DNA of 64,000 bases from a virus: IMG/VR virus record IMGVR_UViG_3300004806_000019, positions 20,224 to 84,223 of that record; one strand, written 5' to 3'. Shown here one piece after another: positions 15,245-62,500 of this stretch. The translations under genes were made by a program, and so were the position numbers. The first letter of the stretch is position 1. Every line of letters starts with the position of its first letter. The notes below the pieces were generated by a model, which saw nothing but the letters and a program-made list of their open reading frames with translations, searched no databases and was not told where the DNA came from.

Positions 15245-15294
15245 TACTCCATATGATGATATATTTATTTGTTTCTAAATTTATCAGGTGAGCC

Positions 15295-15744
15295 ATGCGT
15301 CCGATTATTTATGCAGCAACGGCAACAGACGTAGCCAATGGCTTCACCGTAGCATTTCCGCTTGATTTTAACCGTGTGGCTGGAAGTTATTCCATTCAGT
15401 ATCTTACCTATGCTGGACAAGGAACGGTCTTGTTAAGCACAGGTTTATACTCTGGCCCTCCATTGGCGGCAGGGGCTACCTCAACGGCTCCTACTTCATC
15501 GATCACGGCAGGGACAGGTGCAGCAGGGGCTGGCACTGTTCAGCAAACCTATGATGATGTTTTTGCTGCTAATGCTTTAGCTCAAGCAATTGGGAGTGGA
15601 ACTCCTAACATTATTTGGACTAGCGTGACGCTTACATCTGGACGAGCGATTGTCTCTCCTCCAGTGAAAGCATTCAGAATTTTGTCTCCTACGCTTGGTG
15701 ATGTTATTACTATCATCGCGCAGGGCAGCAGTGTCGGCGGGTAA
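15295..15744 (+). CDS. Virion structural protein
   Basis: AGGTGAG SD; TVQQTYDDVF motif. Confidence 0.6.
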   Translation: MRPIIYAATATDVANGFTVAFPLDFNRVAGSYSIQYLTYAGQGTVLLSTGLYSGPPLAAGATSTAPTSSITAGTGAAGAGTVQQTYDDVFAANALAQAIGSGTPNIIWTSVTLTSGRAIVSPPVKAFRILSPTLGDVITIIAQGSSVGG

Positions 15745-15755
15745 GGAGCCATAGT

Positions 15756-31173: not shown

Positions 31174-34100
31174 ATGTCAGGGGTAACTTCCGCATTACTC
31201 TGGGGCGGCAAAGCACCGGCAGCAGTGGGTCTGTTGGCGTGGGGGAATAATTCTTATGGTCAGCTAGGTCTTGGGAATACGACTTATTATTCAAGTCCTA
31301 AACAAGTTGGAGCGTTAACAAACTGGTCTAGCATTGTTGGTGGCGCCTATCATGGTGTTTCTATAAAGTCTGATGGCACTCTATGGGCGTGGGGATTAAA
31401 TCAATATGGTCAATTAGGTTTAGGAAATAGAACTTATTATTCCTCTCCAAAGCAAATCGGCGCTTTAACGAATTGGTCAAAAGTTGCTTGTGGCGGAAGG
31501 TTTACGACGGCCATTAAAACTGACGGAACCCTATGGACTTGGGGGTTTAATAATAATGGTCAACTTGGTTTAGGAAATAGAACTTATTATTCTTCTCCAA
31601 AGCAAATCGGAGCTTTAACTAATTGGTTAAAAGTCGCTTGTGGGTACTATCACACAATAGCGATAAAAACAGACGGAACACTATGGACTTGGGGACTAAA
31701 TCAATATGGTCAGTTAGGTTTAGGAAATATCACGAATTATTCTTCTCCGAAACAAGTTGGATTATTAACAAACTGGTCCAGTTGCGCTGGAGGGCAATCT
31801 CATACAATTGCCATTAAAACAGATGGGACTCTATGGACTTGGGGGTGGAACATTTTTGGTCAATTAGGGCTTGGAAACATTACGAATTATTCTTCTCCGA
31901 AACAAGTCGGCTTATTAACAAACTGGTCCAGTTGCGCTGGAGGGCATTATCATATAGTGGCAATTAAAACAGACGGCACCTTGTGGTCCTGGGGAAGAAA
32001 CAATTTTGGTCAATTAGGGCTTGGAAACATTACGAATTATTCTTCTCCGAAACAAGTCGGCTTATTAACAAACTGGTCTAGTTGCTCTGGAGGGCAATAT
32101 CATACAGTTGCCATTAAAACAGATGGGACTCTATGGACTTGGGGGTGGAACATTTTTGGTCAGCTTGGTTTAGGAAATATAACTTATTATTCCTCTCCAA
32201 AACAAGTTGGATCTCTTACTTCATGGGTAAAAGTCGCTTGTGGTTTTAACCAAACCCTCGCCATAGGCCGCCCCGTCCCCGTTGGCCTGATGTCGTGGGG
32301 GTATAATGGTTCTGGGCAGTTAGGTTTAGGAAATACGACTTATTATTCCAGTCCTAAAGCTGTGGGACAGTTGACGAACTGGTCAAAAATAGCAACAGGT
32401 AATACTTTTGTAGCTATAAAAACTGATGGGACACTTTGGGTTGGGGGATGGAATAATAATGGTCAATTAGGGCTTGGAAACATCACTTATTATTCTTCGC
32501 CTAAACAGGTTGGGGCATTGACTAACTGGTCTAGTGTGGCTTGCGGTCAATCCTCTACGGCAGCAATTAAAACTGACGGCACCTTGTGGTCCTGGGGAGG
32601 GAATCAATACGGTCAACTTGGTCTTGGAAATACCACAAGCTATTCAAGCCCCAAACAGGTAGGTGGTCTAACTAACTGGTTGGCTCTCGCTTGTGGTGAA
32701 TACTTTGCTATTGCCACCAAGACTGATGGCACATTATGGGCGTGGGGGCAGAATAATAGCGGTCAGTTAGGTCTTGGGAACAGAACCCATTATTCTTCTC
32801 CTAAACAAATAGGCGCTTTAACAAATTGGTTAAGTGTTGCCTGTGGGAACTATTACGTTTTATCAATTAAGACTGATGGATCTCTATGGGCTTGGGGTCA
32901 AAATAACTATGGTCAATTAGGGCTTGGAAATCAGACTTATTATTCTAGTCCCAAGCAAGTCGGTGGCCTGACGAATTGGTTAAAAGCTGTCCCTGGTGGT
33001 GGATACTTTGCTATTGCCACCAAGACTGATGGAACTTTATGGGCTTGGGGAAACAACCGATACGGCTCGTTAGGTCTTGGGAACATTACGAATTATTCTT
33101 CTCCAAAGCAAATCGGAGCTTTAACTAATTGGTTAAAAGTCGCTTGTGGGAGCTATCACGTTTTATCAATTAAGACTGATGGATCTCTATGGGCTTGGGG
33201 ATTAAATAATTATGGTCAATTAGGGCTTGGAAACATTACGAATTACTCCTCCCCCAAGCAAGTCGGCTCCCTCACCACATGGCAGAACGTCGCCTGCGGG
33301 CATTTTTCTGTCCTCGCCACGATAGTCCCCGTATCGCCGGGGCTGGCGGCTTGGGGGCAGAATAATTATGGTCAGCTAGGTCTTGGGAATCGGACTTATT
33401 ACTCTTCGCCTAAACAGGTTGGAGCGTTAACTAACTGGTCTAGCATTGCTGGCGGCATCTCTCATGTTGTTTCTATAAAGTCTGATGGAACCTTGTGGGC
33501 GTGGGGGGCTAATAACAATGGTCAGCTAGGTCTTGGGAATCGGACTTATTATTCAAGTCCTAAACAAGTTGGCGTTTTAACGAATTGGTCAAAAGTCGCT
33601 TGTGGGTACCTTAGCACAATGGCGATAAAAACTGACGGAACCTTGTGGGCATGGGGTCAAAATGCCCTTGGACAATTAGGGCTTGGGACCATTACGAATT
33701 ATTCTTCTCCAAAGCAAATCGGAGCTTTAACTAATTGGTTAAAAGTCGCTTGTGGGTACTATCACACAATAGCGATAAAAACAGACGGCACTTTATGGAC
33801 TTGGGGGTATAACTACTATGGTCAGTTAGGTTTAGGAAATATAACTTATTATTCCTCTCCGAAACAAGTCGGCTTATTAACAAACTGGTCCAGTTGCGCT
33901 GGATGGCAGTATTTTACAGTTGCCACCAAAACAGATGGCACTTTATGGACTTGGGGTCAAAATGCCTATGGTCAATTAGGGCTCGGAAACATTACGAATT
34001 ATTCTTCTCCAAAGCAGGTTGGAGCGTTAACTAACTGGTCTAGCATTGCTGGCGGCATCTCTCATGTTGTTTCTATAAAGTCTGATGGAACCTTGTGGTC

Positions 34101-34395
34101 CTGGGGGTATAATAACTTAGGTCAGTTAGGTTTAGGGAATCGGACTTATTATTCAAGTCCTAAACAAGTTGGCGTTTTAACGAATTGGTCAAGCGTTGCT
34201 TGTGGCGGAAGGTTTACGACGACCATTAAAACTGACGGAACCTTGTGGGCATGGGGTCAAAATGCCTATGGTCAATTAGGGCTCGGAAACATTACGAATT
34301 ATTCTTCTCCAAAGCAAATCGGAGCTTTAACTAATTGGTTAAAAGTCGCTTGTGGTGGATATACTACCATCGCCACCTTTGGGGTAATGACGTAA
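31174..34395 (+). CDS. RCC1-repeat protein, 21 blades (3 x 7-bladed propellers), probable receptor-binding protein
   Basis: 21 copies of an approximately 50-aa DG.LW.WG.N..GQLGLGN.T.YSSPKQ.G.LTNW repeat, with Pro-rich linkers after blades 7 and 14. Confidence 0.9.
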   Translation: MSGVTSALLWGGKAPAAVGLLAWGNNSYGQLGLGNTTYYSSPKQVGALTNWSSIVGGAYHGVSIKSDGTLWAWGLNQYGQLGLGNRTYYSSPKQIGALTNWSKVACGGRFTTAIKTDGTLWTWGFNNNGQLGLGNRTYYSSPKQIGALTNWLKVACGYYHTIAIKTDGTLWTWGLNQYGQLGLGNITNYSSPKQVGLLTNWSSCAGGQSHTIAIKTDGTLWTWGWNIFGQLGLGNITNYSSPKQVGLLTNWSSCAGGHYHIVAIKTDGTLWSWGRNNFGQLGLGNITNYSSPKQVGLLTNWSSCSGGQYHTVAIKTDGTLWTWGWNIFGQLGLGNITYYSSPKQVGSLTSWVKVACGFNQTLAIGRPVPVGLMSWGYNGSGQLGLGNTTYYSSPKAVGQLTNWSKIATGNTFVAIKTDGTLWVGGWNNNGQLGLGNITYYSSPKQVGALTNWSSVACGQSSTAAIKTDGTLWSWGGNQYGQLGLGNTTSYSSPKQVGGLTNWLALACGEYFAIATKTDGTLWAWGQNNSGQLGLGNRTHYSSPKQIGALTNWLSVACGNYYVLSIKTDGSLWAWGQNNYGQLGLGNQTYYSSPKQVGGLTNWLKAVPGGGYFAIATKTDGTLWAWGNNRYGSLGLGNITNYSSPKQIGALTNWLKVACGSYHVLSIKTDGSLWAWGLNNYGQLGLGNITNYSSPKQVGSLTTWQNVACGHFSVLATIVPVSPGLAAWGQNNYGQLGLGNRTYYSSPKQVGALTNWSSIAGGISHVVSIKSDGTLWAWGANNNGQLGLGNRTYYSSPKQVGVLTNWSKVACGYLSTMAIKTDGTLWAWGQNALGQLGLGTITNYSSPKQIGALTNWLKVACGYYHTIAIKTDGTLWTWGYNYYGQLGLGNITYYSSPKQVGLLTNWSSCAGWQYFTVATKTDGTLWTWGQNAYGQLGLGNITNYSSPKQVGALTNWSSIAGGISHVVSIKSDGTLWSWGYNNLGQLGLGNRTYYSSPKQVGVLTNWSSVACGGRFTTTIKTDGTLWAWGQNAYGQLGLGNITNYSSPKQIGALTNWLKVACGGYTTIATFGVMT
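31230..34375 (+). repeat. Approximately 150-bp coding tandem repeat array
   Basis: Identical or near-identical DNA blocks, e.g. 33421/34021, 33961/34261, 31801/32101. Confidence 0.9.
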
Positions 34396-46970: not shown

Positions 46971-48098
46971 ATGGTTGGGATGTTAAACGCAATTGCTGGC
47001 AGATATCATTATGATGAAGGCGGCTCTACTGGAGATGACGACCAGCAGAGAGGTCCACTCTCCACTTATGACCCGTCTGTTCTTGGCAATATGCAGAATG
47101 CAGTCCTAGGGGGAACACCTGAATCTGCCTTGCAGAAATATAAGGATGCCCAATCAGCACAGGAAGCAGCGGCCCAAGCAAAGAAGGATCGTATCCAACA
47201 GGCAATGGATACACTGAGTGCAAATCGCTCCAATCTCCCGATGATGGCTTTTGGCGCAGGGATGATGAAGCCAACCCACACTGGCACGTTTGGCGAAACA
47301 CTTAGTAATGCAATGAGCGATACAATCCCCGCCATTGATAAGCAGCGTCAATATGAGGCGCAGCTTCAGCAGATGGGGGTTTCAGCGGCTGACGTTGATC
47401 TGGCCCAGAAGACTAAAGCGGCCCAAGATTGGACAGACCGGATGAAGCTTGGGTTGACTACGGCAGAAACAAACCAGAGATTGCAGCAAAGTGATCAGCA
47501 ACATCAGGATTCGCTTAATCTTCAGAGGCAGCAGCTTCAAGGACAAAAAGGATATTATGATTATTTGAAGCAAGAAGACCCTGACGAAGTTTCCTCATGG
47601 GTGCCATTGTATGAAAAACCGGGCGTTCAAAAGATGGACCCTGTAAGTGGCTTGCCGTTATATCAAGGCATGAGCAAAACAGAGAAGCCCGTCGGTCAGC
47701 CTCGGATTGTTAGAAGTGATGATTTGGATAGCAGCAATACAAGTTCCCGTGCAGATCCGATTATTTCGCAGTATAATTCGGCTCAGAAGGCGCTTGATGC
47801 TGCTATTAGCAAAAGGTACGTTATATTAGGATCAAATCCTAAAGCCGATACGAAAATGTTAGATGAGCAAATCGCTCGTCAAAGAGAGCTTGTTGAACAA
47901 TTGAGAGTTGCGGCTACGACAAGGTTGGGAGGCTCAACCACAACGCAGCCTGTATCGCCGGATCCCTTAGCGGCAGGATTAGGGGGAAACGGAAGTGTTC
48001 CTTCTAAGAAGCCAAACATTGATCCTGGCATATATTCTCCTTCTCAAGAAGCAGCTAGGTCTGGAGCATTTCCCGCCCCACAGCCAGGAATTGATTGA
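46971..48098 (+). CDS. Ejection/internal virion protein
   Basis: GAGGG SD; FG.GM..PT.TG.FGE motif; Q-rich helices. Confidence 0.65.
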   Translation: MVGMLNAIAGRYHYDEGGSTGDDDQQRGPLSTYDPSVLGNMQNAVLGGTPESALQKYKDAQSAQEAAAQAKKDRIQQAMDTLSANRSNLPMMAFGAGMMKPTHTGTFGETLSNAMSDTIPAIDKQRQYEAQLQQMGVSAADVDLAQKTKAAQDWTDRMKLGLTTAETNQRLQQSDQQHQDSLNLQRQQLQGQKGYYDYLKQEDPDEVSSWVPLYEKPGVQKMDPVSGLPLYQGMSKTEKPVGQPRIVRSDDLDSSNTSSRADPIISQYNSAQKALDAAISKRYVILGSNPKADTKMLDEQIARQRELVEQLRVAATTRLGGSTTTQPVSPDPLAAGLGGNGSVPSKKPNIDPGIYSPSQEAARSGAFPAPQPGID

Positions 48099-51000
48099 TG
48101 CCTGAAGATCGCGCAGATGCTCCCCTACCGGAATCAGTGGACATTTCGGAGGCTACTCCTGCACCTGTTATAAACTATGTTAATTACACTCCCGCCCCGA
48201 CTCAGGCGCCAATAAAATCATCATTGCCTCCTTTGACACCGCGTCCAACAGAAAAGCCAGCACAAGGTCTTCCGTTAGACGTTGTTAAGCAGAAAGTGGC
48301 AAAGTTAAAAGATGCCGGTTATTCGCAGGATGAGATTGCTGAATCTCTTATGAAGAATCCTTTTTTCGGCCCTCGTATATCTGAGGCGGCTGATAAAGGA
48401 TGGGAATATCCAGAAATTTTTTCGAGATTTGGCCTCGATGGATATGATCCAACGGAAGGTGGTCCGTTAAAGACTCCATGGCGATATGTCAAAGCAGGCG
48501 TTGAATCTGCTGGGGAAATGATTGGAAACACTCTCCAGGGCGGAGCTATCGCTTCAGACCGAAGATCTTTATATGCTCCATATTATGAGGACTACACCTC
48601 GTTTAAGAGCAAGTCTCCTGAAGAGCAGCAGCAGATTCTTAGTAAGATCGCTAATAGTGATATGGACTTGGAGGCCAGACAGAATCTTACAAAAGAGTTC
48701 CGCAGGCTTCAAGAGGGGGCAAATCCTAGACAATTTGACATGCTGGCAAATCAGCCAGTTGAACAATTGCCTGGATACAAAGTTGGACAATGGTTCAAAG
48801 ACACCACACAGGGACTGCTTAATCCTGAAGAGGAAAAGCTAACTGGCGTTAGGATTGCTAAAGCTGCTGCCCCTATCGTTCCTGCTATGGCTGCAACAGC
48901 ACTTGCCGGTCCTGCTGGCCCAATGGCTCTGTTTGGCGGGTCTTCTTATCAAGAGGGTTATGAGAAGGCAAAAAAGGTTGGCGCCTCAGAAGAAGCTGCC
49001 CGTGACGCTGCTATGAAAGAAGCCGGTATTGGTGCTGCCGCTGGTGTTCTGGATGTTGGAGCCATATTAGGCCCAATAGCAAAATACTCTCCTGAACTCC
49101 TTAATAGGGCGCAAGCAATCCTTTATAAAGGTATTCAAAGCGGTGTCATTGGAAGTTCAGTCGGAGAAGCTCAAAAGTGGCTGAATGCTCAGATTGAACG
49201 CACAACTTATGATCCAAATGCACAATATAAATTTGATCCGACAGAAGCTGCGATTGGATTTGCAGGGATGGCAATTCCAGGTGCAGTTCATGGGGCATTC
49301 CATGAGCAAGCCCCAAAAGAAACCGCTCCGACAGGAACAGATATTCCTCATCCATCATTGATTGCCCATGCTTATTGGAGGATTGATGAGCTTGAGTCTA
49401 TCTACAATGGAACAGAGGGAAACCCTCCAAGGGATCTAACTCCTGCTGAAGCTGCCGAATACGCATTTCTTCAGAAGAACAAAAATAAGCCCGAAGAGCT
49501 TTCTAAAGTGATTCGTGGGACTGAGCCTTCTGAGCAACCGGAGCCGACTCAAGCGCCAACAGTTACGCCAGCCCCAACTGTTTCTAAATCTAATAAGCCT
49601 CCGAAAGCGACAAAGGCTCCTGTGCAGGCTGAGATACAAGCTCAACCTGAAGCGCAAGTTCAACCGGAAACACAGGATAAGGTTCAAGAGGCTGCTAACG
49701 CCCTTGTCGAAGAGGCAAAGCAGAATCCTACGGTTACAACACCTGAAAAAGATAGTGATATCTCCGCTCAAATTAAGGAGATGATCAACCCAAACAACCC
49801 GAGAGATTCTGTCTACATTGCTCCAGGGAATGAGCATGAAATCCCTGTCAGTGCTTTAGATCATCCAGGTGTTGAGCTTGCTGAAAATCCCGTTAGTAAG
49901 GCTTTGTTGCTAACGACCAATATGGACAAAGCCATAGATTTTCAGAAGAACAGAGATCTCACAGAAGAAGAGAAAGCCAATTTGCTGGGTCTTTCTCAAC
50001 CCAAAACTGAGGCGTTAAAAGATCCTAATGCTGTCGTCGTTCAAGGGAAGAATGAGGATGGCGCTATTGTTCATCAGGAGCTTACCTCACAGGATAACCT
50101 GCCTAACTCTGTAGAGAACACAGCGAATAGGACTCCTGAAACTGGTCAAGTTGAAGTCGCCAGCACAACAGGAGCGCAAGCCCATAGAGTTGGTGGTGAT
50201 GATCAAGCTGTTCCTGTGGCAAAAGGAAAGGTTCCGACTCCCGATCCTGAGATACAGATTGCTGAGATCCGTAAGCAGATTGAATCATTTGAAGAACATC
50301 GGGATCAAGCTCTTGAAGTTGGGGATACTCCTACGGCTCAGAATTGGCATAACCGTATAAGGGAGGCTAATGAACAAATAGCCGAGCTTCAAAGAGGTCA
50401 ACCGTTAGAAAAAGAGCCAGCAGTTCAAGAGAGTGAACCCGCTTCTCCGCAGGCTCCGTCAACCGATATTCCTTGGGAAAATCATTATCAACGAGCAGTT
50501 GATGTCGTTGGGAGCGAGAGTTTCCCGCTTAAAAGCAAACCACTTGCAGATAAGCTTGGGGTTGATGAGGCTATGGCAACAAGGCTTTTACAAGCCATGG
50601 CGTCCAGGGGAGCTATTAGGCAAACAAAGAATGGTGGGTTTTCACGAAATCCAGATAGAGGCCCGTTAGACTTTCTTACATTCTTGGCAGCAAAGGGAGG
50701 TCTTCGGGATGATGAAGGCCATCTTCTTGCTCAAAGTATGGACGCTCAGAGGATGGTTCCGAATTACGGACCTTTAATCCGTAAGAATGGAATGGGGATT
50801 GATCAGGCAGGGGAAGCTTTGTGGCAGGCCGGATATTTTGGCCCGACTGATTCTACGCCAAGGCCAACAGAGACAGAAGTATTAAACAAGCTAAGTGAAG
50901 CCCTGAATGGGAGACTTCCTCTTGAAGAGCGGTATTCTGAATATGACCGAGATCGGGTGCAAAAGATTCAGGACACCAAGACCGCTAAAGATCGGGAGAA

Positions 51001-54000
51001 GCTTGAAAAAACAGCTAGGGCTGACATTGAGAAGCTTAATGAAGAAAAGACATATGGATTAACCCCAGAAGAAAAAGCTAGAGCGATTGAGCTTTTGGTT
51101 GAGCATCCAGAGGATTTCTCTCCAGAGGAGGCTGTTGTTCACGTTCTCGATACGTCAATGATTGAGGATCTTCATGGGGCTATTGACGTAGCAAGGGATG
51201 CACATGATGACGAGTTTTCCGATATACCGTTTGAGTGGCCAGCAGAGGTTGAACCTCCTCAACGAGGCGAAGAGGAGGGTAAAGGGACAGAAGTCTCTAT
51301 CCCCACTTCAGAGGAGGAATCTGGCACGGTTGGCAAAGAACCTGGAGAAGGTGAACGCCAAGATCTCCGTGACAAAGAAATAGGTGATGTCATTGGTGCA
51401 GGGGAACGGACAGCCCCACCAATGGACAGAGAGCGTCAGCAGGCGGAAATAAGGGCGCGACAGGCAGGTAAGAAAAGAAGCGGAAAAGAACAAGAAGAAC
51501 CGGGCGGGATGTTTGCCACGGAAGAAAAGGGGTTATTTTCCGAACCGAAGAAAACCGCTGATTATGGAACTCAGAATAAGGTCATTACAGCAGACGCGGC
51601 GGAGAAAGCTAGAGAGCTTCTTCGCAAGAAATCAAATCAGATTAATGCTGGTATTGACCCTGAAACCATGTTGGCTGGTGTTACGCTTGCTGCCTATCAC
51701 ATAGAGGCAGGAACAAGAAAGTTCGTAGATTTTGCAAGGGCTATGGTTTCTGATGTCGGCGCATGGATTAAGCCGTACCTGAAGTCATGGTATAATGCGA
51801 TCCGCGATTATCCGGGGTTGGAGGAAGCTGCCAAGGACATGACGCCGCATGAAGAAATGAATGCGGCCATGGATCAATTGGAAAGGGAAGGCTATGTATC
51901 AAGCGAATCCAGAGGTCTGGAACAAACTGGCGAGGGACCAAAAACTGAAAACGCCATGGGCAAAGAGGCTCTTCCCACTGAAGAGAGAGGAGCTTCACAA
52001 GGCGTTAGAGAAAGAAACGGAGAAGCTGAAGCAAGAGGGAATAACAAGCCCTCAAGTGAGGAGCAGCTTCCTTCAGATGGCGCCTCTTCTGTGGGAGAGA
52101 GAGGCAATAGCGAAAGAGACGCAGGAGAACCCGGCTTTGGGGCAGTGCCTGCCGAACGTGGAGGACGCCCAGGAGGCTACGATGTTAGCCAGCATGGACC
52201 GGCCATTGAGCATATCGAACCAGAAGAAGTTAATAAAACTGCTGGAGACTCCAAGACAGTAGCTCAGAGGTTTGCAGAGCAGAAGATTGCAAACTCTCGT
52301 CCAGTTGTCTGGAACGATATTAATAACATCAGAGAGACATTACCCGCTCTATTCCCTGATCAACAAGATGATGTTCATAAGTCTGAAAAACGTCTGAGTG
52401 TTGCTCATGGGATTATGATTACCAACGGAACTGGCACCGGCAAGACATGGAGTGCTGGTGGTGTAATCGCTAGATTTGTCCGTCAGGGAAAAGAAGACAT
52501 TCTTGTTGTTGCCCCCTCTCAGGACATCCTCACTGATTGGAAAGCTGCCCTTAAACATCTTGGTGTCGATGCCTCCGTTTTAGAAGGGACGCAGAAGTCT
52601 GGTAAGGGCGTAACACTTACTACCTATGCTAATCTTGGGGAAAATCGCCATATAGCGGATCGGAACTGGCATTTAGTTGTCGCAGACGAAAGCGATAATC
52701 TTATGTCAGATCAAAAAGGGAATACCACAAAAGCTCTAAATAGCTTCAGGGCGATCACGAACCATCCCGACGCATTGTATATTAGAGCGGATATGGCTTT
52801 GAGGGATCTTAATGATCGTGTTGCAGATCTCTCAGAGCGTGTTCATAAAAATTATAACAACAAAGAACTGACCTCTCAGTGGATAAACGCCCAGAGAGAG
52901 CTTGAGCAAAAACGCAAAGAGTTGGTTGATGTATACAAAGATCAACCGCGATCAAAGGCTATATTCCTTTCGGCCACTCCATTTTCATATGACAAAACAA
53001 CTGACTATGGAAATGGCTATCTGTTCGATTATCAAAAAGAAGGTAATAGAAGTGGGTATAACGTAGCTGAAGGTCGTAACCTTTTTATGGTTCAGAACTT
53101 TGGCTATCGGATGAGAAATGGGAAACTCACGGCTCCAGAAGCAAATGTTAATAGTGAGGTTCTTGAAAGAGATTTTCATGAACGCCTGAAGAAAGAAGGG
53201 GCTTTGATCGGGAGACGGTTGGAGGTTGATTCTGACTATGATCGTAAGTTCATATTAGTTAATGACGCTATTGGGAATAACATTGACCGGCTTCTTGAGT
53301 TTTTGCGTGAATCTGATGACGGGAAATTCCGTCCGATCTATTCATTCGTTAATGATAGATTTGATTATCTTTCAAGGCAGAGGTTGCTTGAGGCAATCAA
53401 GGCCAATCACGCAATCCCTATTATTCGGGAACACCTTGCTCTTGGCAGAAAGGTTGTTGTCTTCCATGACTTCAATGAAGGTGGTGGATTCCATCCTTTT
53501 GATACGAGTGAAATTCCAAATAACCCTGTCTTTGTTACCGTCAATGGAAAGTCACATGAGTTCAATTTAAAAGACCTCGCAAACGAATTTCACGACAGGA
53601 ACCCTGACGCAATAAAAATGGACTTCTCATCTATGAAAAGTCCGATTGAAACGATGACCAAGGCTTTTCCAGAAGCTCTTGTCTACAATGGAACGGTAAG
53701 TTCCAAGAACAGGGCCACCATCAAGCAACTCTTTAATCAAGATGGTTCTGGCAGAGATGTCATTGTTATTCAATCGGCTGCTGGTAGAGCGGGAATAAGC
53801 CTGCACGACACAACGGGAGTCCATCAAAGGGTTTTAATTAATCTTGGTATGCCCACTCGGCCAACAACCTCAATTCAACAAGAGGGGCGCATTTATCGTA
53901 CAGGGCAAAAGTCCGATGCAATGTTCCGGTATATGAATACTGGCACAGCATGGGAGCGGGAAGCATTTGCCAGTAGGATTGCTGAACGGGCAAGCTCAGT

Positions 54001-57000
54001 TGAAAACCTTGGAATGGGGAACCAAGCACGTCAATTGAAGCAATCATTCATTGATGCCTTCAATGACACATCTGAGTACCCTCCTTCTCCTGAAGAGGGA
54101 AAAGGTGGGAAATCATTAGACCGTCAGACATTCAGTGATATGTCTGATTTTGAAAGAGCTAAAACTTATTACTTTGCAGAGCAGAAGAAGACGGGTCGCA
54201 GAGATCAGCGTGAGGGTGTTGACTATTTTCCAACACCAGAACCGTTGGCACAGAAGATGGTTGAATGGGCAAATGTTAAGCCCGGAGAGAAAATCCTTGA
54301 ACCATCTGCTGGTCATGGCGCGATATCTCGTTATTTCCCAGAATCTACAGAACGCACTATCGTTGAGCCGTCTAAGGATCTTGCAACCAGAGCCAGCCTA
54401 ATGACTCCTGGCGCTAGAGTGGTGAACGATAAGTTTGAGAATCTGCATATCTCAAATAAGTACGATGGGATTGTTATGAATCCACCTTTTGGCATTGGTG
54501 GAAAAATGGCAATTGAACATCTGGCTAAAGCTGCTTCCCATGTTCGGGAAGGAGGGAGGATCGTTGCCCTTCTCCCAGAAGGACCGGCAACCGATAAACG
54601 TCTTGCTGCATTTAGAGATAGTGATGCGGCAAAAGACCTTCATCTAGTTGGAACGGTATCCTTGCCGACTCATATGTTTGATCGGGCAGGAACAAACGTT
54701 AAGTCTCATGTTCTTATATTTGAAAAGCATACCGTTCCAAAACAGGCAAATCAGTATGGCTCTGATGTCGGAGATAAGATCCGATCTGTTGTACACCATG
54801 CAGATCTGTCTAACTCTCCAAGCATTAACGATACGTTCAATCGACTTGAGCATTTGTCGATGCCTGATCGTATTGAGCCGGTGACTAAAGAGGTTGAGGC
54901 TCCAGAAGTTCCATCAAATGGAAAGGTTGTCGTTAGTGGGCTGGCCCTGAGTTCAATAACCAATAAAGACGGGTCTATCATGGTCAGCCCGACCAAGCGT
55001 CTTGGCGCCAATGATTATGCTCGGTTTATGCGGGTTGGTGAGAGATATGGGGGGGTCGAAAATGATTATTATAGTGGATTATCATTTAAATCTCCCGATG
55101 AGCGCAGTGCGTTTTTTAATGCTTTAGAGCGTGGTGAAACAGGGAATGAGCCTTCCGCTGAAGCTCAAAGGCAAATTGATAATGGTGGATTAGGCGTTAC
55201 CTTTGATCGTAAGCAAGGGTTGCGTGAAGATGGTGCTGTTTATGAGAAACTTCATACTCAGACCAGAAAAAAGCTTTTTTATGCAAAGCCTGATAACAGA
55301 GTATCCCCTGAGACTTATCAAAAGCTAAAACAGATTGCTGGAGAAAATGGCGGAGGATTCTGGGACCGCTATGAGAAAGCATTCAGGTTTAATGACGAAG
55401 ATAGCCGTCAAGCATTTATGAATAAAGTTACAGGGTCACTCCCCCTGAAGAGTGGAGACTTGCGGGTTGGCAAGAAAATGGACGCATTATATGTCCATAA
55501 GTCTGCCATCGATACGCTTCCAAAGGATGCTCAAAATCGTATTGAAAGAGCAAAGCCTCCGTTTGATTGGGATGTTGCCAAGATAAAAAGAGACAAAGAT
55601 GGCGCTCTTGAGAATGTCTCTCTTATTGAGGCAAAAGATTTTGATGAAGCTGATGAGCCGAGTGTCGGAAGATCCTTTGTCATAGATAGAGACGGAGAGA
55701 CTCGTATCATCCCAGCTTCTGGGAAAATTTATCATGGTAAATGGCAAATGGTTAAGTCCGACTATCAGGGCTTTGATGTTGATGCCAGCAAGGAAAGAAC
55801 ACGGCTTCTTGACAGCGTAACGTCAACTGAGGACAAGAGACGGTACGGTCAAAAAGATTACATGGATAATGTTGTCGCGCCTAAGCTGTCTAACAATGCA
55901 AAATTAGCAGATCGGTTCTTAACTGATCGGGACAAAGTTCCTGAGACAGTAACAACTCTCGACTACAACCCAAAAGATGGGATTGTTCAAAAAATTAGCT
56001 CGGCTAACACGGTGCGTCGTCAAGCTGCACAAGTTTTCGGCAATGATAAGTTTTATCCTAGATCCGAAACGCCGTCTTTTAATCTTGATCTTGGTGGCGG
56101 AAAATTCCCTGAAGGAACAGAACGACTTGCTGAAAAGGGAATAACCAATCTCATCCATGATAAATATAATCAGAGTGAGCAGCATAACAGGGATGTTGTT
56201 GAGAAGGTAAAGGCTGAGAAGGGAACCGGAATCGTTTCTGCCACTAATGTTCTAAATGTCATCAAGGAACCAATGGCAAGGCTTGACCTTATTCGCCAAG
56301 CTGCAAAAGGTTTGAAGGATGATGGGGTCGCTTATTTCCAAATCCATGAAGGTGATAAGAGTGGAGAAGGGAAAGAGACAAGTGATGGGTGGCAAGCCAA
56401 TAAGCTGACATCAACCTATCTTCCTATGGTCAGGCAGTATTTTGGCAAGGTTAAGCAGGTTGGCAGGCCAGATGCTCCTAAAGGCAATCTAATTATTGCC
56501 GCAGAGCCTAAGAGAATACCGGGACAAACTATTTGGGAAGGCACTGAGCCTTGGGATACCAAAGGCAATACCGTGCCTATGTTCTCGGGGGACGTGCGTA
56601 ATGAGCATTACTTCCCTGAAGATGGTGAGGGCCTGATTGCTCATAATGAATCTTTAAGCCCAGGAGATGCTGAGTTAGTTCATAACGATGCACGGGCATA
56701 TGTTTTGGATCGAGGAAACGAAACCGGCCATGAGCATGGGATTGCTGTTCATTCTGATGGGCGAGTTGAACATTTTACGGAAGGAAAAGAGGATACTCTT
56801 TCTATAAAGAAAGTTGCTCCAGAGCTATATCGTGAGATGGAGCAAGCTGGTAACAACATTGACGTTCATCATAATCACCCAGAGGGAACGAGCGCCCCAC
56901 TATCTGAAAGTGATTTGCAGCTATCGACTCTTGATGGTGTCAATCGTGTAATTGCCCATGCTGGAGACGGTGTATTTTCCGTTGCAAAATGTTCGGACGC

Positions 57001-59863
57001 CTTAAACCAATTCGGCAATGCTGGAGATCGGCAAAAGCTTATCCGAAATTCATACAGAGATGCTCTTCGGGCCATACAAGAAAGGATATTCACTGGTATC
57101 CGAGATGGAGAGATTTCTGAAGAGGGGATCCATAACATTGGTGATTATGAGCATATTATAAACATGGCCCTGGATCGGGTTGGGTTGATTGATTATGTTT
57201 CAAACCATCAGATTGAAGACACTCCTCTCAATCGGGAACTTGCTCAGAAGGCAATTCTTGCTGCATGGGATAGCGCAAATGAAAATGGATTTAGAGTAAG
57301 GAGTAGCCAGGATGCTGTCAGGCTTGATGCTAAATTATTCCATGATGGAACCTTTGCCGAAGTTGCGAAAAATTTTGGTGAACCTTCAGGAACTCTCCAA
57401 GGAGGATCCAGAGGCGAAGGAAGAATTGGAGAAACTGCGAGAGACTATCCGCTGGAGAGAGAAAATAAATCTTCTTCCCAAGAAGGAGCAGCGGAATCGT
57501 TAGGTCTTAAATCTGGCGACCTAAGAACAGAAGATGAGAAACGTGGGGCTGTAACAATCTCTCATGTCATCGATAAGTGGAGCGCGGAAGGACCGGGGAA
57601 GGGTCCACTTCGGCGCCCTGTTCAAGTCCTTGAGGGAGCGGCTGATTATGTTAAGGAAACACTTCCTATAACGAGTCAAATTTGGAAATGGGCAAGTCGT
57701 CGCATTTTCCCTGGTTCAGCAGATGCTTTCGCTAAATCAGCAGCAAGAACAATCCGTCATATGTATGGGCAGTCCTATCTCTGGGAGATCCAGATGGGAC
57801 ATAAGCTCGATGAAATATCCAATCGCCTCGATGCTCTTCCTGTCGATGAATGGAACAAGATCGGGATTGCTTGGGCCAAAGGGGACTATGAATCAATTCC
57901 GGAAGAATACCGCGAGGCGTTTAAACAAGCAGATGACTTTACAAAGAAAGCCACAGAGAGGCTTCAGTCTCTTGGGGTTCTGAAAGATGCAATGGGGCAT
58001 TATGTAGGAAGAATTTGGAAGAAGCGTGGAGAGAATGCCCCGTCAACTGATGAGGAAGGAAAGAAGATATTCAATCAGTTGATGAGCAAGTTCCCCCTTC
58101 TTGGAAGGAAATCCTTCCTGAAGAAAAGATATTTTGATGAGTATGAGGATGCTATCGCGGCAGGAATGGAGCCTGTCTACAACCCTCTGAAGACACAGAT
58201 GGTTAAGATTGCTGAGATGAACAGATATTATACAGGGACAACTCTTGTCCGTGCGGCGAAAGAAAGCGGTATAGCAAAGTTCTTTGCAAGAGGATCTCAG
58301 GTACCGGACGGTATGTTAGAGTTGGCTGGTCCTGAATTTCAACGCCCATTTATGAAGGTCATTGAGGGAGAAAAGACTACGTCTGTTCTTCCTGGCGCTT
58401 GGTATGCCCCAGAGGGATTTGCTCGGGTCTACAACAATCATGTTTCAAGAGGGTTCTCTGGAACACCAGAAGGTGAACCTGTGCAGATGCTTAGGAGCAT
58501 TGGTGGGTTTATGAACCAAGCACAGTTGGGTTTGTCTATGTTCCACCCTGTCTTTACAACGTTTGACGCCATGAGTAGCACCATGGCTATTGCCGTTGAT
58601 CAGGCTGTTCGTAAAGATTTTGGTCTTGCTGCTCAGACATTTGCAAAATCTATGAACCCATTCGGTGTTTATAAGGACGGGGATAATTTCCTAAAGGCAG
58701 TCCTTGATCCTGACAAGGCAACTCCAGATCAGAAGTTACTGATTAATGCTCTTGGAGAGGGTGGCGGAAGAGTTTGGATGGAGAGAGTTCTGCGCCCGAC
58801 TGATGAAGGGGCAATGGTTGCTAAAAGGATTTCGGATATACCCGCAACATTAGGAACGGCATGGAAGCTTGCGTCTCATAAGTATGACGGAAGTGGGATG
58901 ACTAATCAAATGAGGCGAGTGTTTAATGTCGCCGGTCGGGTTATGGAGACGATGTCGTCTCCGATTATGAACCATTTGGTTCCTCGTCAGAAGTTAGGTG
59001 TGTTCTCTCGTATGGCGGCTGATTGGCTTGCTGCAAATCCAAATGCAGGAAGTTTAGAGCGTATCACTAAAATGCAAGATATCTGGGAAAGCGTAGATAA
59101 CCGTTTGGGTCAAATGGTTTATGACAACCTTTTCTGGGACAAGACTCTTAAAGAAGCAAGCTTCCTTGCTGTCCGGTCTGTTGGTTGGAACATGGGGTCG
59201 ATCCGAGAGATTGGTGGAGGACTGACTGATTTCACAGGAGCCATAAAGGATAAGATTGCTGGTAGAGAGGCCGAGTGGACAAACAGAATGTCATATCTCA
59301 TCGCTATGACAGCTAGTACGGCCATCACCGGGGCAATAATGAATCGTCTCTTTACGGGAGAAGGTCCAAAAGAATTAAAGGATTATTTCTTCCCTCGTAC
59401 TGGAGAAACGAGGTTGGTTAAACTTCCAGGTCGCAATCACCCTGTGATGGAAGTTCCTGAGAGGTTGTCGATCCCCTCTTACTTCAAAGACATTATGGCT
59501 TGGACAACCCAACCGGGTCAGACTGCGAAGAATAAGATTCATCCCTTATTTAGTGCAATGGCTCAAGCTTGGGATAACCATGATTACTACGGTGATATCA
59601 TCTGGAATAGAGATGACCCTGCTTATAAACAGGCATTGGATATGGCAAAGTTTGCTGGCTCAACATTGATTCCGTTCTCAATCACCGGAACAATGAAAAT
59701 GTGGAAAGAGCGTCCAGGTCCAGTTGCCACTATGGGTATGCTTGGGTTCCAGCCTGCACCTGGATATATAGCCGCCCCAGAAGCAAGACAAGCATGGGAT
59801 GATTACATCCATGCTCAAGAGGTTAGAAAGAAAGCAGCGCGTGAGCTTAAAAATAGTAACTAG
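48095..59863 (+). CDS. Giant polyvalent internal virion protein (DarB-like): winged helix, SF2 helicase, N6-adenine MTase, second SAM-dependent MTase, JAB/MPN domain, helical C-terminal domain
   Basis: GTGTGKT (about 52427), ADESD, SAT, QQEGRIYR; LEPSAGHG + NPPF (about 54479); LDLGGG + NVLNV (about 56246); HNHP....LS..D (about 56870). Confidence 0.85.
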   Translation: MMPEDRADAPLPESVDISEATPAPVINYVNYTPAPTQAPIKSSLPPLTPRPTEKPAQGLPLDVVKQKVAKLKDAGYSQDEIAESLMKNPFFGPRISEAADKGWEYPEIFSRFGLDGYDPTEGGPLKTPWRYVKAGVESAGEMIGNTLQGGAIASDRRSLYAPYYEDYTSFKSKSPEEQQQILSKIANSDMDLEARQNLTKEFRRLQEGANPRQFDMLANQPVEQLPGYKVGQWFKDTTQGLLNPEEEKLTGVRIAKAAAPIVPAMAATALAGPAGPMALFGGSSYQEGYEKAKKVGASEEAARDAAMKEAGIGAAAGVLDVGAILGPIAKYSPELLNRAQAILYKGIQSGVIGSSVGEAQKWLNAQIERTTYDPNAQYKFDPTEAAIGFAGMAIPGAVHGAFHEQAPKETAPTGTDIPHPSLIAHAYWRIDELESIYNGTEGNPPRDLTPAEAAEYAFLQKNKNKPEELSKVIRGTEPSEQPEPTQAPTVTPAPTVSKSNKPPKATKAPVQAEIQAQPEAQVQPETQDKVQEAANALVEEAKQNPTVTTPEKDSDISAQIKEMINPNNPRDSVYIAPGNEHEIPVSALDHPGVELAENPVSKALLLTTNMDKAIDFQKNRDLTEEEKANLLGLSQPKTEALKDPNAVVVQGKNEDGAIVHQELTSQDNLPNSVENTANRTPETGQVEVASTTGAQAHRVGGDDQAVPVAKGKVPTPDPEIQIAEIRKQIESFEEHRDQALEVGDTPTAQNWHNRIREANEQIAELQRGQPLEKEPAVQESEPASPQAPSTDIPWENHYQRAVDVVGSESFPLKSKPLADKLGVDEAMATRLLQAMASRGAIRQTKNGGFSRNPDRGPLDFLTFLAAKGGLRDDEGHLLAQSMDAQRMVPNYGPLIRKNGMGIDQAGEALWQAGYFGPTDSTPRPTETEVLNKLSEALNGRLPLEERYSEYDRDRVQKIQDTKTAKDREKLEKTARADIEKLNEEKTYGLTPEEKARAIELLVEHPEDFSPEEAVVHVLDTSMIEDLHGAIDVARDAHDDEFSDIPFEWPAEVEPPQRGEEEGKGTEVSIPTSEEESGTVGKEPGEGERQDLRDKEIGDVIGAGERTAPPMDRERQQAEIRARQAGKKRSGKEQEEPGGMFATEEKGLFSEPKKTADYGTQNKVITADAAEKARELLRKKSNQINAGIDPETMLAGVTLAAYHIEAGTRKFVDFARAMVSDVGAWIKPYLKSWYNAIRDYPGLEEAAKDMTPHEEMNAAMDQLEREGYVSSESRGLEQTGEGPKTENAMGKEALPTEERGASQGVRERNGEAEARGNNKPSSEEQLPSDGASSVGERGNSERDAGEPGFGAVPAERGGRPGGYDVSQHGPAIEHIEPEEVNKTAGDSKTVAQRFAEQKIANSRPVVWNDINNIRETLPALFPDQQDDVHKSEKRLSVAHGIMITNGTGTGKTWSAGGVIARFVRQGKEDILVVAPSQDILTDWKAALKHLGVDASVLEGTQKSGKGVTLTTYANLGENRHIADRNWHLVVADESDNLMSDQKGNTTKALNSFRAITNHPDALYIRADMALRDLNDRVADLSERVHKNYNNKELTSQWINAQRELEQKRKELVDVYKDQPRSKAIFLSATPFSYDKTTDYGNGYLFDYQKEGNRSGYNVAEGRNLFMVQNFGYRMRNGKLTAPEANVNSEVLERDFHERLKKEGALIGRRLEVDSDYDRKFILVNDAIGNNIDRLLEFLRESDDGKFRPIYSFVNDRFDYLSRQRLLEAIKANHAIPIIREHLALGRKVVVFHDFNEGGGFHPFDTSEIPNNPVFVTVNGKSHEFNLKDLANEFHDRNPDAIKMDFSSMKSPIETMTKAFPEALVYNGTVSSKNRATIKQLFNQDGSGRDVIVIQSAAGRAGISLHDTTGVHQRVLINLGMPTRPTTSIQQEGRIYRTGQKSDAMFRYMNTGTAWEREAFASRIAERASSVENLGMGNQARQLKQSFIDAFNDTSEYPPSPEEGKGGKSLDRQTFSDMSDFERAKTYYFAEQKKTGRRDQREGVDYFPTPEPLAQKMVEWANVKPGEKILEPSAGHGAISRYFPESTERTIVEPSKDLATRASLMTPGARVVNDKFENLHISNKYDGIVMNPPFGIGGKMAIEHLAKAASHVREGGRIVALLPEGPATDKRLAAFRDSDAAKDLHLVGTVSLPTHMFDRAGTNVKSHVLIFEKHTVPKQANQYGSDVGDKIRSVVHHADLSNSPSINDTFNRLEHLSMPDRIEPVTKEVEAPEVPSNGKVVVSGLALSSITNKDGSIMVSPTKRLGANDYARFMRVGERYGGVENDYYSGLSFKSPDERSAFFNALERGETGNEPSAEAQRQIDNGGLGVTFDRKQGLREDGAVYEKLHTQTRKKLFYAKPDNRVSPETYQKLKQIAGENGGGFWDRYEKAFRFNDEDSRQAFMNKVTGSLPLKSGDLRVGKKMDALYVHKSAIDTLPKDAQNRIERAKPPFDWDVAKIKRDKDGALENVSLIEAKDFDEADEPSVGRSFVIDRDGETRIIPASGKIYHGKWQMVKSDYQGFDVDASKERTRLLDSVTSTEDKRRYGQKDYMDNVVAPKLSNNAKLADRFLTDRDKVPETVTTLDYNPKDGIVQKISSANTVRRQAAQVFGNDKFYPRSETPSFNLDLGGGKFPEGTERLAEKGITNLIHDKYNQSEQHNRDVVEKVKAEKGTGIVSATNVLNVIKEPMARLDLIRQAAKGLKDDGVAYFQIHEGDKSGEGKETSDGWQANKLTSTYLPMVRQYFGKVKQVGRPDAPKGNLIIAAEPKRIPGQTIWEGTEPWDTKGNTVPMFSGDVRNEHYFPEDGEGLIAHNESLSPGDAELVHNDARAYVLDRGNETGHEHGIAVHSDGRVEHFTEGKEDTLSIKKVAPELYREMEQAGNNIDVHHNHPEGTSAPLSESDLQLSTLDGVNRVIAHAGDGVFSVAKCSDALNQFGNAGDRQKLIRNSYRDALRAIQERIFTGIRDGEISEEGIHNIGDYEHIINMALDRVGLIDYVSNHQIEDTPLNRELAQKAILAAWDSANENGFRVRSSQDAVRLDAKLFHDGTFAEVAKNFGEPSGTLQGGSRGEGRIGETARDYPLERENKSSSQEGAAESLGLKSGDLRTEDEKRGAVTISHVIDKWSAEGPGKGPLRRPVQVLEGAADYVKETLPITSQIWKWASRRIFPGSADAFAKSAARTIRHMYGQSYLWEIQMGHKLDEISNRLDALPVDEWNKIGIAWAKGDYESIPEEYREAFKQADDFTKKATERLQSLGVLKDAMGHYVGRIWKKRGENAPSTDEEGKKIFNQLMSKFPLLGRKSFLKKRYFDEYEDAIAAGMEPVYNPLKTQMVKIAEMNRYYTGTTLVRAAKESGIAKFFARGSQVPDGMLELAGPEFQRPFMKVIEGEKTTSVLPGAWYAPEGFARVYNNHVSRGFSGTPEGEPVQMLRSIGGFMNQAQLGLSMFHPVFTTFDAMSSTMAIAVDQAVRKDFGLAAQTFAKSMNPFGVYKDGDNFLKAVLDPDKATPDQKLLINALGEGGGRVWMERVLRPTDEGAMVAKRISDIPATLGTAWKLASHKYDGSGMTNQMRRVFNVAGRVMETMSSPIMNHLVPRQKLGVFSRMAADWLAANPNAGSLERITKMQDIWESVDNRLGQMVYDNLFWDKTLKEASFLAVRSVGWNMGSIREIGGGLTDFTGAIKDKIAGREAEWTNRMSYLIAMTASTAITGAIMNRLFTGEGPKELKDYFFPRTGETRLVKLPGRNHPVMEVPERLSIPSYFKDIMAWTTQPGQTAKNKIHPLFSAMAQAWDNHDYYGDIIWNRDDPAYKQALDMAKFAGSTLIPFSITGTMKMWKERPGPVATMGMLGFQPAPGYIAAPEARQAWDDYIHAQEVRKKAARELKNSN
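51204..51383 (+). CDS. Candidate nested (+1 frame) basic helical protein inside the giant gene
   Basis: AAGGGA 5 nt upstream; amphipathic sequence; host frame is a disordered linker. Confidence 0.4.
   Translation: MMTSFPIYRLSGQQRLNLLNEAKRRVKGQKSLSPLQRRNLARLAKNLEKVNAKISVTKK
51894..52262 (+). CDS. Candidate nested (+1 frame) 122-aa protein inside the giant gene
   Basis: Purine-rich SD GGAAAGGGAAGG; globular-looking sequence; host frame is a G/E/R linker. Confidence 0.55.
   Translation: MYQANPEVWNKLARDQKLKTPWAKRLFPLKREELHKALEKETEKLKQEGITSPQVRSSFLQMAPLLWEREAIAKETQENPALGQCLPNVEDAQEATMLASMDRPLSISNQKKLIKLLETPRQ
57312..57503 (+). CDS. Candidate nested (+1 frame) 63-aa helical protein directly after the JAB domain
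   Basis: TAAGGAG SD 8 nt upstream of ATG; amphipathic helices. Confidence 0.5.
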   Translation: MLSGLMLNYSMMEPLPKLRKILVNLQELSKEDPEAKEELEKLRETIRWREKINLLPKKEQRNR

Positions 59864-60878: not shown

Positions 60879-61050
60879 GGAATCTTATGTTTTAACACCT
60901 TCCCCGCCCTAAAGGACGGGGATTTCCGCAACCGGAGGCGCATGCTCGCGCCCGAGAATATTACAAGCAGCATTAACGTCACGGTCATGGATGGTTCCGC
61001 AATGCTCACAAGTCCATTCTCTTACTCCAAGGTCTGCGATACCTCTCGGC
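60872..61050 (-). ncRNA. Predicted omegaRNA (scaffold overlapping the tnpB 3' end/right end, guide from the flank); 5' boundary approximate
   Basis: Established TnpB locus architecture; right-end hairpin followed by TTAA, then AACATAAGATTCCTTATGGA. Confidence 0.5.
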
Positions 61051-62152
61051 CTCCCATTGGGCAACGCGCCACAACAGGAGCAGACTTGGGAACTGTATGC
61101 TTCGTTGACAATGCTGAACTTCCGGCCAAGCGCAATCGCTTTATAAGCAAGCTGGTTTCTAAACATCGTCCATCCGGCATCGCTGACGGATTTCGCCATT
61201 TTGGTTTTCATCAATCGGGATGGGCTGACGTTACCAACCACGATATGTCCGTATTGACGGACAATTCTTGTGCTTTCGACATGCAGGAAATGCCTGCGCT
61301 GTCTGGCAATCTTGGCCTGAATATCTCTGGCGCGACGTTTTTGTTTGCGCCGTTGATACAGAGCCAACTTTTCCTGAGAGGATCGGAAAAACTTTGGAGA
61401 CTCGATCTTGGTTCCGTCGCTCATAGTGGCGAAAGTTTTCAAGCCAAGATCAATCCCAACGGCGAGGCCATCCTGTTTTTCCCCATCTGGCAACTCGATC
61501 TGGATGTTGACAAACCAATGTCCTTGGCTATCGCAGGACAAGTTCCACGATTTAGGATTTCCGTTCTCTGGAATGGGGCGAGACAACCAAAGCCGGTAGT
61601 CACGACCAAGAAAACGCAGAGTATCCCCGTCCAATTTAGCAGGACGTTTGAAATTGCTGAATGGAATCCAGTCGAGGTTGCGCTTGGCCGACCGGAAGCG
61701 CGGCGTCTTTGGAAAACATGCGCTCCGAGAATCGGCAAACTTGGCACAAACCGCATCAACCGTGTCGGAGTGAATACCAAGTTCTTTGGTCACACCTCGG
61801 CACAAATTGGCAAGATCGAACGCAGAAGGACGCTTGATAGTCATCCCGGCGCGGTATCTGGATGCGGCAACGCGGTCAGTTTCGCAACAATAATTCCAGA
61901 CGAAATTAACCGCTCTAGCCTGCGTCCTAAGCGCACGACGAACGGCTTTATTTCCATCCTTGATTCGGTATTGGTGCGTCAATATCATCGAAAAGGGCGT
62001 CTTTCTGGTAATGACAGAAGCTCGTCTAGGGACTGTGCGACGTTGCAAGCGTCCACAGTCCCGATCAATTTACCCCACTTTTGTCTCAACATCAACAAGG
62101 GAGCGGCTTTCCTCCCCGGCCTAAACGCCGGGGTTTCCAGCCGAAACATCGG
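60892..62152 (-). mobile_element. Non-autonomous IS200/IS605-family (IS1341-like) element carrying only tnpB
   Basis: Sub-terminal hairpins TCCCCGCCCTAAAGGACGGGGA (about 60901-60922) and CCCCGGCCTAAACGCCGGGG (about 62114-62133); TCAT target on the minus strand at 62153-62156; no tnpA. Confidence 0.85.
60909..61988 (-). CDS. tnpB: TnpB RNA-guided endonuclease
   Basis: VGIDLGLK, SVSDAGW..F..QL.YKA, VNEAYSSQ.CS.CG, W.C..CG..HDRDVNAA.NI; probable start MILTHQYRIKD. Confidence 0.95.
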   Translation of the reverse strand: MILTHQYRIKDGNKAVRRALRTQARAVNFVWNYCCETDRVAASRYRAGMTIKRPSAFDLANLCRGVTKELGIHSDTVDAVCAKFADSRSACFPKTPRFRSAKRNLDWIPFSNFKRPAKLDGDTLRFLGRDYRLWLSRPIPENGNPKSWNLSCDSQGHWFVNIQIELPDGEKQDGLAVGIDLGLKTFATMSDGTKIESPKFFRSSQEKLALYQRRKQKRRARDIQAKIARQRRHFLHVESTRIVRQYGHIVVGNVSPSRLMKTKMAKSVSDAGWTMFRNQLAYKAIALGRKFSIVNEAYSSQVCSCCGALPNGRPRGIADLGVREWTCEHCGTIHDRDVNAACNILGREHAPPVAEIPVL

Positions 62153-62500
62153 ATGAGAAAATTATTTATCGTCCCTCTGCTTCTCTTAGCTGGGTGCAAC
62201 AGTGACGGAACCCTGAAGCCGGGTGTCCTGACATTCGTCAACAACGTCGTCACTGCTTCTTGTCAGATTGATCAGGCAATTCCTGGTCTTGTGTCACAGG
62301 GGGCGCTTATTACAGCTTTGGTTGCTCCTGAATATGCCCCAGAGGTTGCTTTGGCAACGAAGGTTGATCAGTTGGCGCATCCTGCTGTTGTCGCTGCGTG
62401 TAATGCGGCAGCGGCGGCTCAAGCGAATGCTGCTGCAAATCATCCTGTGGCTGTAGCTGTAACCCCGATCTCAACAACGGTAACGGTTCCTGCGCGATGA
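62153..62500 (+). CDS. Lipoprotein in the lysis cassette
   Basis: MRKLFIVPLLLLAG-C lipobox. Confidence 0.75.
   Translation: MRKLFIVPLLLLAGCNSDGTLKPGVLTFVNNVVTASCQIDQAIPGLVSQGALITALVAPEYAPEVALATKVDQLAHPAVVAACNAAAAAQANAAANHPVAVAVTPISTTVTVPAR

Follow-up and report, generated by a model that had tools for sequence, protein, structure and literature searches.

In phage lambda the i-spanin gene Rz contains the o-spanin gene Rz1 in its +1 frame, and the two products act together. Dual-coding regions with asymmetric constraint on their two frames are known from viral overprinting (reviewed in PMC8227390, PMC6195259), and P3N-PIPO of potyviruses and other slippage products exemplify conserved open reading frames (ORFs) in polyprotein genes that annotation has missed (PMC4761962, PMC5009743). 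Here we analyse 64,000 nucleotides of viral DNA, termed the window, which are the final 64 kb (positions 20,224 to 84,223) of the 84-kb IMG/VR virus record IMGVR_UViG_3300004806_000019. The window contains a single ORF of 3922 amino acids (aa) for a giant DarB-like polyvalent protein (48095-59863, + strand, frame 0). A preliminary description of the sequence had claimed that three overprinted genes, here called ORF1, ORF2 and ORF3, are hidden in the +1 frame of this giant gene. We consider it highly probable (about 0.88) that ORF2 (51894-52262, + strand, 122 aa and a TAG stop) is a real nested gene translated from an internal Shine-Dalgarno (SD) site and ATG, that the giant frame serves there as a stop-free spacer, and that ORF1 and ORF3 are by-products.

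Like Rz1, ORF2 is a same-strand gene that lies wholly inside another phage gene, out of frame and with its own start. It differs from Rz1 in that it belongs to the virion module and not to a lysis cassette, in that its predicted product is a soluble helical domain without signal peptide or lipobox, and in that its host is an 11.8-kb polyvalent gene whose own frame is the uninformative one. As ORF2 has neither a lipobox cysteine nor a signal peptide and is not found in a lysis cassette, we rejected it as an embedded, Rz1-like spanin; an embedded spanin pair is annotated in phage Parlo, itself a carrier of the nested gene. Classical overprinting yields a short new frame that is disordered and weakly constrained, whereas in the ORF2 overlap the short frame is strongly constrained and predicted to be folded, its domain exists in frame elsewhere, and the long host frame is a predicted disordered passenger. 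This reversed polarity is unusual. Slippage gives access to PIPO, which lacks its own start, whereas ORF2 has a universal ATG, an SD site and often a stop just upstream. The host itself resembles the polyvalent proteins (Iyer et al., 2017; PMC5512222) and the DarB-like proteins (P1 DarB, Bcep22 gp75, JC1 gp69) in being a multidomain giant with helicase and methyltransferase, encoded at the end of the virion module. A search of the text of PMC5512222 turned up no reference to overlapping or out-of-frame genes, and we found no report of an overlapping gene inside polyvalent or DarB-like genes in the limited collection of literature that we searched.

A listing of the ORFs in the window contains all three candidates in the +1 frame of the giant ORF. 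ORF1 is listed as 51198-51383 (+ strand, 61 aa), the previously given start at 51204 being its second ATG (59 aa). ORF2 is listed as 51861-52262 (133 aa), of which 51894 is an internal ATG (122 aa), and ORF3 is listed as 57312-57503 (+ strand, 63 aa), as described before. The SD-like strings are also where they had been reported, with AAGGGA before 51198/51204, the purine-rich GGAAAGGGAAGG at 51880-51891 (+ strand) before ORF2, and TAAGGAG ~10 nt before 57312. The same is true for the Gly/Glu/Arg/Ser-rich composition of the main frame at all three sites, where the fraction of Leu, Ile, Val and Met is 0.11-0.12 versus 0.19 across the gene. A stop in the +1 frame needs a T at the second position of the host codon, and all 138 +1 stops of the giant gene are therefore found on Leu (67), Met (27), Ile (24) or Val (20) codons. 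Since +1 stops arise only on these codons, a disordered linker with few hydrophobic residues keeps the +1 frame open. We compared the observed lengths with 2000 synonymous-codon permutations in which protein sequence and codon usage were fixed. The longest +1 open stretch in these shuffles is 164 ± 30 codons, with a probability of 0.86 for at least 133 codons, and ~16 stretches of at least 60 codons are expected where 14 are observed. At the individual sites, the observed length is attained with a probability of 0.73 for ORF1, 0.37 for ORF2 and 0.60 for ORF3. The lengths of the ORFs and their location in linkers are no more than chance predicts and are uninformative for all three.

We then turned to relatives of the giant gene. 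A scan of viral contigs with one protein alone gave no match; an alignment-based scan of IMG/VR yielded 357 relatives, from which 80 loci were kept, and phage records were added. Searched with tblastn, 75 of 82 loci contain a homologue of the ORF2 peptide at E < 1e-3, with identities of up to 64% over 122 aa, and each match is in the +1 frame relative to the giant ORF at that locus. The peptide that the main frame encodes in the bases of ORF2 reaches at most 43% identity and matches only three of these loci at the same threshold. A hidden Markov model (HMM) of the nested family finds exactly one match in each of 86 out of 86 sources, without exception in the +1 frame relative to the giant ORF, and none among the main-frame sequences of 80 giant proteins. 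Inclusion of two bacterial genomes, whose loci were retrieved with the single family member P0288 as the query, brings this to 87 out of 87 sources (the window, IMG/VR contigs, six cultured phages and two Negativicutes genomes). Moreover, when 2069 alternative-frame ORFs within the giant genes were compared all against all, the ORF2 cluster was the only universal one, with one member in each of the 87 sources. The search with the three peptides that the preliminary description had proposed thus has a divided outcome: homologues in the +1 frame throughout for ORF2, and none in either frame for ORF1 and ORF3.

The cultured phages that carry the nested gene are Parlo, Skulduggery, vB_KpnP_ZX1, Ruegeria 45A6, Vibrio 1.232.O and Vibrio D274, all of which have Proteobacteria as hosts. 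The two bacterial loci are found in Megasphaera intestinihominis (giant ORF 3039-15437, 4132 aa; +1 nested gene 9001-9378) and in the metagenome-assembled genome (MAG) of an Acidaminococcus (giant ORF 2835-16058, 4407 aa; +1 nested gene 9001-9372), and these giant ORFs of gut Negativicutes are presumably prophages or integrative elements. No match to the nested gene was found in plasmids. Because the HMM is also without a match in the stretches examined from Bcep22, Atu_ph08, Ralstonia UAM5 and Itty13, the nested gene marks one subfamily and not polyvalent proteins generally. The window sequence is also found in freshwater metagenomes. Contigs from four other freshwater runs are identical to it over the nested ORF, and across 4 kb only two differences occur, which both fall in the helicase. 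An assembly error thus does not account for the frame relation, and the arrangement recurs in 86 other sources.

The pattern of substitution tells which of the two frames is under selection. Across the overlap, nucleotide diversity at the first, second and third codon position of the nested frame is 0.505, 0.420 and 0.549, the order expected of a coding frame being seen for ORF2 (second < first < third), whereas in terms of the main frame the third position is the most conserved and the first the most variable. An alignment guided by the main frame agrees with this (0.549, 0.504 and 0.437 in main-frame positions). In the adjoining helicase region, diversity by main-frame position is 0.449, 0.367 and 0.628, which is a normal coding pattern. 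Across the overlap, the nested frame has an amino-acid identity of 0.367 versus 0.231 for the main frame, and its value is the higher one in 99.5-99.8% of 2346 pairs, whichever frame guides the alignment; in the helicase, used as a control, identity is 0.249 in the +1 frame versus 0.423 in the main frame. Both measures place the constraint on ORF2 in the nested frame. Codon usage favours the nested frame in 57 of 69 loci. The conserved motifs that can be seen in the main frame of the overlap, here called linker 2 (51893-52258, + strand, aa 1267-1388), are out-of-frame echoes of the nested protein.

The main frame nevertheless stays open. In 69 out of 69 distinct loci it has 0 stops across the overlap versus 1.45 expected if each nested protein is kept and its own codons are permuted; the probability of an open main frame in these permutations has a median of 0.20 and is 0.02 for the window. 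Thus both frames are maintained, the nested one for its sequence and the giant one for its continuity, which amounts to true dual coding.

Structure prediction separates the two readings of the same bases. AlphaFold2, given the alignment of 68 nested sequences, returns an eight-helix domain with a predicted local distance difference test (pLDDT) of 96.0 and a predicted template modelling score (pTM) of 0.89. The main-frame translation of the identical bases from 68 loci gives a pLDDT of 50.1 and a pTM of 0.14, and linker 2 is predicted to be disordered. For this linker, the earlier suggestion that the linkers are the shadow of real nested genes is borne out. The nested product is predicted to be a compact, all-helical protein of ~14 kDa. 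Its sequences start with MYQVP..VWNEIA... and are 116-141 aa long across the sources. There is no credible match to it in Pfam, PHROGs, NCBIfam, PADLOC or PDB sequences, and its predicted fold has no convincing counterpart in PDB (Foldseek E > 1; best Z of 4.5 in a wide VIA-align search) or BFVD. A profile search of 1.84 billion representative proteins, in contrast to these annotated collections, recovers 596 clusters (50% identity) at E <= 1e-3, 115 of them at E <= 1e-30. Most of the 596 clusters are 115-140 aa long, with the match starting at residue 1. The proteins that were looked up come chiefly from short metagenome or MAG contigs and are called 'hypothetical protein' at most. Gene callers seem to pick the nested ORF where contig ends cut the giant gene. 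In the GenBank records of all six cultured carriers only the giant coding sequence is annotated over the nested gene, so that the claim that standard annotation misses such genes holds for ORF2 in six out of six cases.

The nested domain is also found in frame inside longer proteins, in two copies in P0204 and in one in P0205, which makes it an ordinary protein domain outside the overlap. In other database proteins it shares one frame with a second domain, whose counterpart in the window is a main-frame helical domain directly upstream of the nested gene (51563-51844, + strand, aa ~1157-1250). This upstream domain is conserved in the relatives (motif ...HIEAG.R.F...KPYLKSWY..., with invariant G89, E98, R102, F104, L123 and Y127 in the numbering of the relatives' alignment) and has no match in a Pfam search. 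The upstream-type domain precedes the nested domain in P0096, P0105, P0113 and P0203, and the order is opposite in P0138, P0184 and P0190. These fusions hint at a functional link between the two domains. Among the relatives the upstream domain seems to be of two types, the second of which reads …MKPYIRRFTEDV…, and both types are found joined in frame to the nested domain in database proteins. As a separate observation, in one lineage (P0088, P0096 and P0113) the stop of the nested domain has been lost, and the domain runs into an extra C-terminal one of ~165 aa; two of these three proteins are also in frame with an upstream-type domain.

Start and stop of the nested gene are conserved as well. 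An ATG coincides with the aligned start column, or lies no more than two codons from it, in 76 out of 76 sources; this column corresponds to 51894 in the window, the start that had been picked before any comparison. Conservation of the family begins exactly at this Met, and the +1 sequence 5' of it is unconserved. A core SD motif (GGAG, GAGG or AGGA at -16 to -5) precedes the ATG in 60 of 69 distinct loci (87%), versus 8% of 5299 other +1-frame ATGs of the same genes that served as background (p = 4e-56), and a looser SD-like motif is found at this distance in 65 of the 69. At the 3' end, the nested stop lies within two codons of the point where main-frame conservation resumes with the helicase module (52268-54079, + strand), which shows the normal coding signature (third > first > second position). 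A conserved main-frame Leu or Val just before the helicase, at 52260-52262 in the window and at the homologous places, is the out-of-frame image of the nested stop (C/T/G-TA-G/A).

These features suggest that ORF2 is translated independently, from the internal SD site and ATG on the mRNA of the giant gene. Programmed +1 ribosomal frameshifting, by which a truncated N-terminal polyvalent protein ending in the helical domain would be made instead of, or besides, a free 14-kDa protein, is improbable. It would fit the four proteins (P0096, P0105, P0113 and P0203) that run directly from the upstream-type domain into the nested domain in one frame, and the median distance of 16 codons between the preceding +1 stop and the nested ATG would accommodate a shift site in many loci. 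However, in 9 of 69 loci a +1 stop lies three codons or less before the ATG, which favours independent initiation over frameshifting. Moreover, frameshifting needs neither the universal ATG nor the SD motif seen in 87% of the loci, and it would not predict conservation that sets in at the Met.

We also considered that the conserved element is a nucleic-acid signal, either an RNA structure or a DNA site, and not a second protein. Nucleotide conservation in the overlap does exceed what the main-frame protein requires, as such a signal would predict. It has, however, a three-base periodicity in the nested frame, the start, the SD site and the stop are conserved, a deep alignment leads to a confident fold, and the domain occurs in frame in other proteins. 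We regard a signal of this kind as extremely unlikely.

Similarity in an alternative frame can also be a by-product of conservation in the main frame, and an antisense ORF of 102 codons in the methyltransferase region (54334-54639, - strand) served as a control for this. It has tblastn matches in 82 loci, with up to 59% identity. As a hidden gene it was rejected, because the third main-frame position is the most variable one (0.619) and 24 of 28 homologues contain stops. Its similarity is a by-product of strong main-frame conservation. Alternative-frame similarity alone is thus insufficient, and ORF2 passes the tests which the antisense ORF fails. This bears on the explanation that all three ORFs, including ORF2, are chance open frames of hydrophobic-poor, purine-rich linkers and that the similarity of ORF2 derives from the main frame. 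The length statistics by themselves are fully compatible with it, and the antisense ORF illustrates how tblastn matches may come about without a gene. For ORF2, on the other hand, the higher identity of the nested frame, the reversed pattern of codon positions, the ATG in 76/76 sources, the SD site, the conserved stop position and the pLDDT of 96 leave this explanation with hardly any probability.

A further set of alternative-frame ORFs was seen just 3' of the nested gene, where open stretches in the +2 frame cover the N-terminus of the helicase in 63 loci (10888-11490 in the relative L003, and 62 others), with a median identity of 49%. The cluster was considered as a hidden gene of GC-rich relatives, and the window has no member of it. 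We suspect that it is a by-product of helicase conservation, to which base composition possibly contributes.

ORF1 and ORF3 fare differently from ORF2. Neither has a homologue, in either frame, in the 82 loci searched by tblastn, nor in 50,697 phage records, and ORF3 has none in 5.8 billion proteins. In the stretch equivalent to ORF1, a +1 stop interrupts the closest relative (L002), which shows no similarity, and three other relatives, one of them aligned in part, have an open frame without related sequence. For ORF3, a single relative (L004) spans the equivalent stretch, and it has a +1 stop. Both are most likely chance ORFs, by-products of the hydrophobic-poor linkers. That one or both are young, lineage-specific overprinted genes beyond the reach of comparison is unlikely. 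Each does have an ATG and a purine-rich upstream string, and the negative comparison is weak because few relatives align at these sites. Against this, SD-like strings are expected in purine-rich DNA, the lengths of both ORFs are at or below the shuffle expectation, the closest alignable relatives carry +1 stops, and no homologue came up in the searches described above. Of the three overprinted genes that had been proposed, ORF2 is upheld by its frame, start, coding signature and predicted fold, whereas ORF1 and ORF3 are not supported. The outcome calls for caution in general, since two of three candidates, as well as an antisense ORF that appears strongly 'conserved', failed tests of codon position and stops.

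Taken together, the data are best explained by the following model. ORF2 exactly fills the gap between the conserved upstream helical domain and the helicase-methyltransferase module, and would be translated by itself from its SD site and ATG on the mRNA of the giant gene. Linker 2 is the DNA of ORF2 read one base earlier, a segment to which the giant frame would add no sequence information. By remaining stop-free, the giant frame would keep the N-terminal modules tethered to the helicase via a disordered spacer. Of the two frames, the nested one is most likely the older, and we infer that the giant ORF came into being, or was extended, when it read across a small gene already present in another frame.

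Several observations weigh against this model or limit it. Codon usage in the window itself scores the main frame higher (0.31) than the nested frame (-0.01), and the SD site of ORF2 in the window is only of the looser, purine-rich kind. Independent initiation is argued from the SD site, the ATG and the upstream +1 stops in 9 of 69 loci, and a search of sequencing runs listed no RNA run as carrying the window stretch. For ORF1 and ORF3 the comparison is thin, with four alignable relatives (one of them partly) for the former and one for the latter. As to function, the isoelectric points of the nested family range from 4.1 to 9.7, and neither a known family nor a fold match offers guidance.

What the small protein does is a matter of speculation. 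Its strict gene position and its in-frame fusions with the upstream-type domain suggest that it may be an accessory partner of the flanking modules, acting in assembly, packaging or regulation, for instance as a chaperone or an adaptor. This is a weaker version of the earlier proposal, in which the overprinted genes encode cognate inhibitors or chaperones of the injected effectors, comparable to toxin-immunity pairs. It is possible, if rather doubtful, that the helicase-methyltransferase giants of this subfamily originated when a long ORF crossed an older small gene out of frame, and that the product of this gene is a dedicated partner (a chaperone, a packaging adaptor or an inhibitor) of the modules on either side. 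If this is true, some 'linkers' of polyvalent proteins cover the genes of cognate partners, and one stretch of DNA yields both a tether and a factor acting on the tethered parts.

Whatever its function, the nested gene was found in all members that we examined of a widespread phage and prophage gene family and yet is not annotated. With 366 nt, the same-strand overlap is unusually long for double-stranded DNA phages and is deeply conserved. Deleting or truncating a DarB-like giant gene of this subfamily would also disrupt a second protein. The overlap gives a testable model of how giant multidomain proteins can be fused across an intervening gene, and the nested protein is a clean target for structural and functional work, having a confident model that matches no solved or predicted viral fold.

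The setting of the giant gene is that of a virion module, as it follows the virion and tail genes. Its product has ResIII/Helicase_C_4 matches at aa 1421-1995 and methyltransferase matches at aa 2104-2171, and thus the many effector-type domains, including helicase and DNA methyltransferase, that characterize the polyvalent/DarB-like class. We found 79 homologues of the giant protein, the top one with 47% identity across 41% of its length, and they bear the polyvalent-protein-associated Pfam families PF18857, PF18823, PF18760 and PF18763. Among its named relatives, the top matches come from Serratia phage Parlo and Pseudomonas phage Skulduggery and are annotated as DarB-like antirestriction proteins. 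Two more distant relatives, JC1 gp69 and Bcep22 gp75, are virion-associated according to mass spectrometry (PMC9144972).

Finally, two other loci of the window deserve mention. Downstream of the giant gene, ORFs on opposite strands, 60909-62048 (- strand, 379 aa) and 60942-62156 (+ strand, 404 aa), share 1.1 kb; the one on the + strand has no PHROG match. Further upstream, 31174-34395 (+ strand) encodes a protein of 1073 aa with many matches to 'regulator of chromosome condensation' PHROGs and to tail-protein PHROGs, which is probably a tail fibre or receptor-binding protein.

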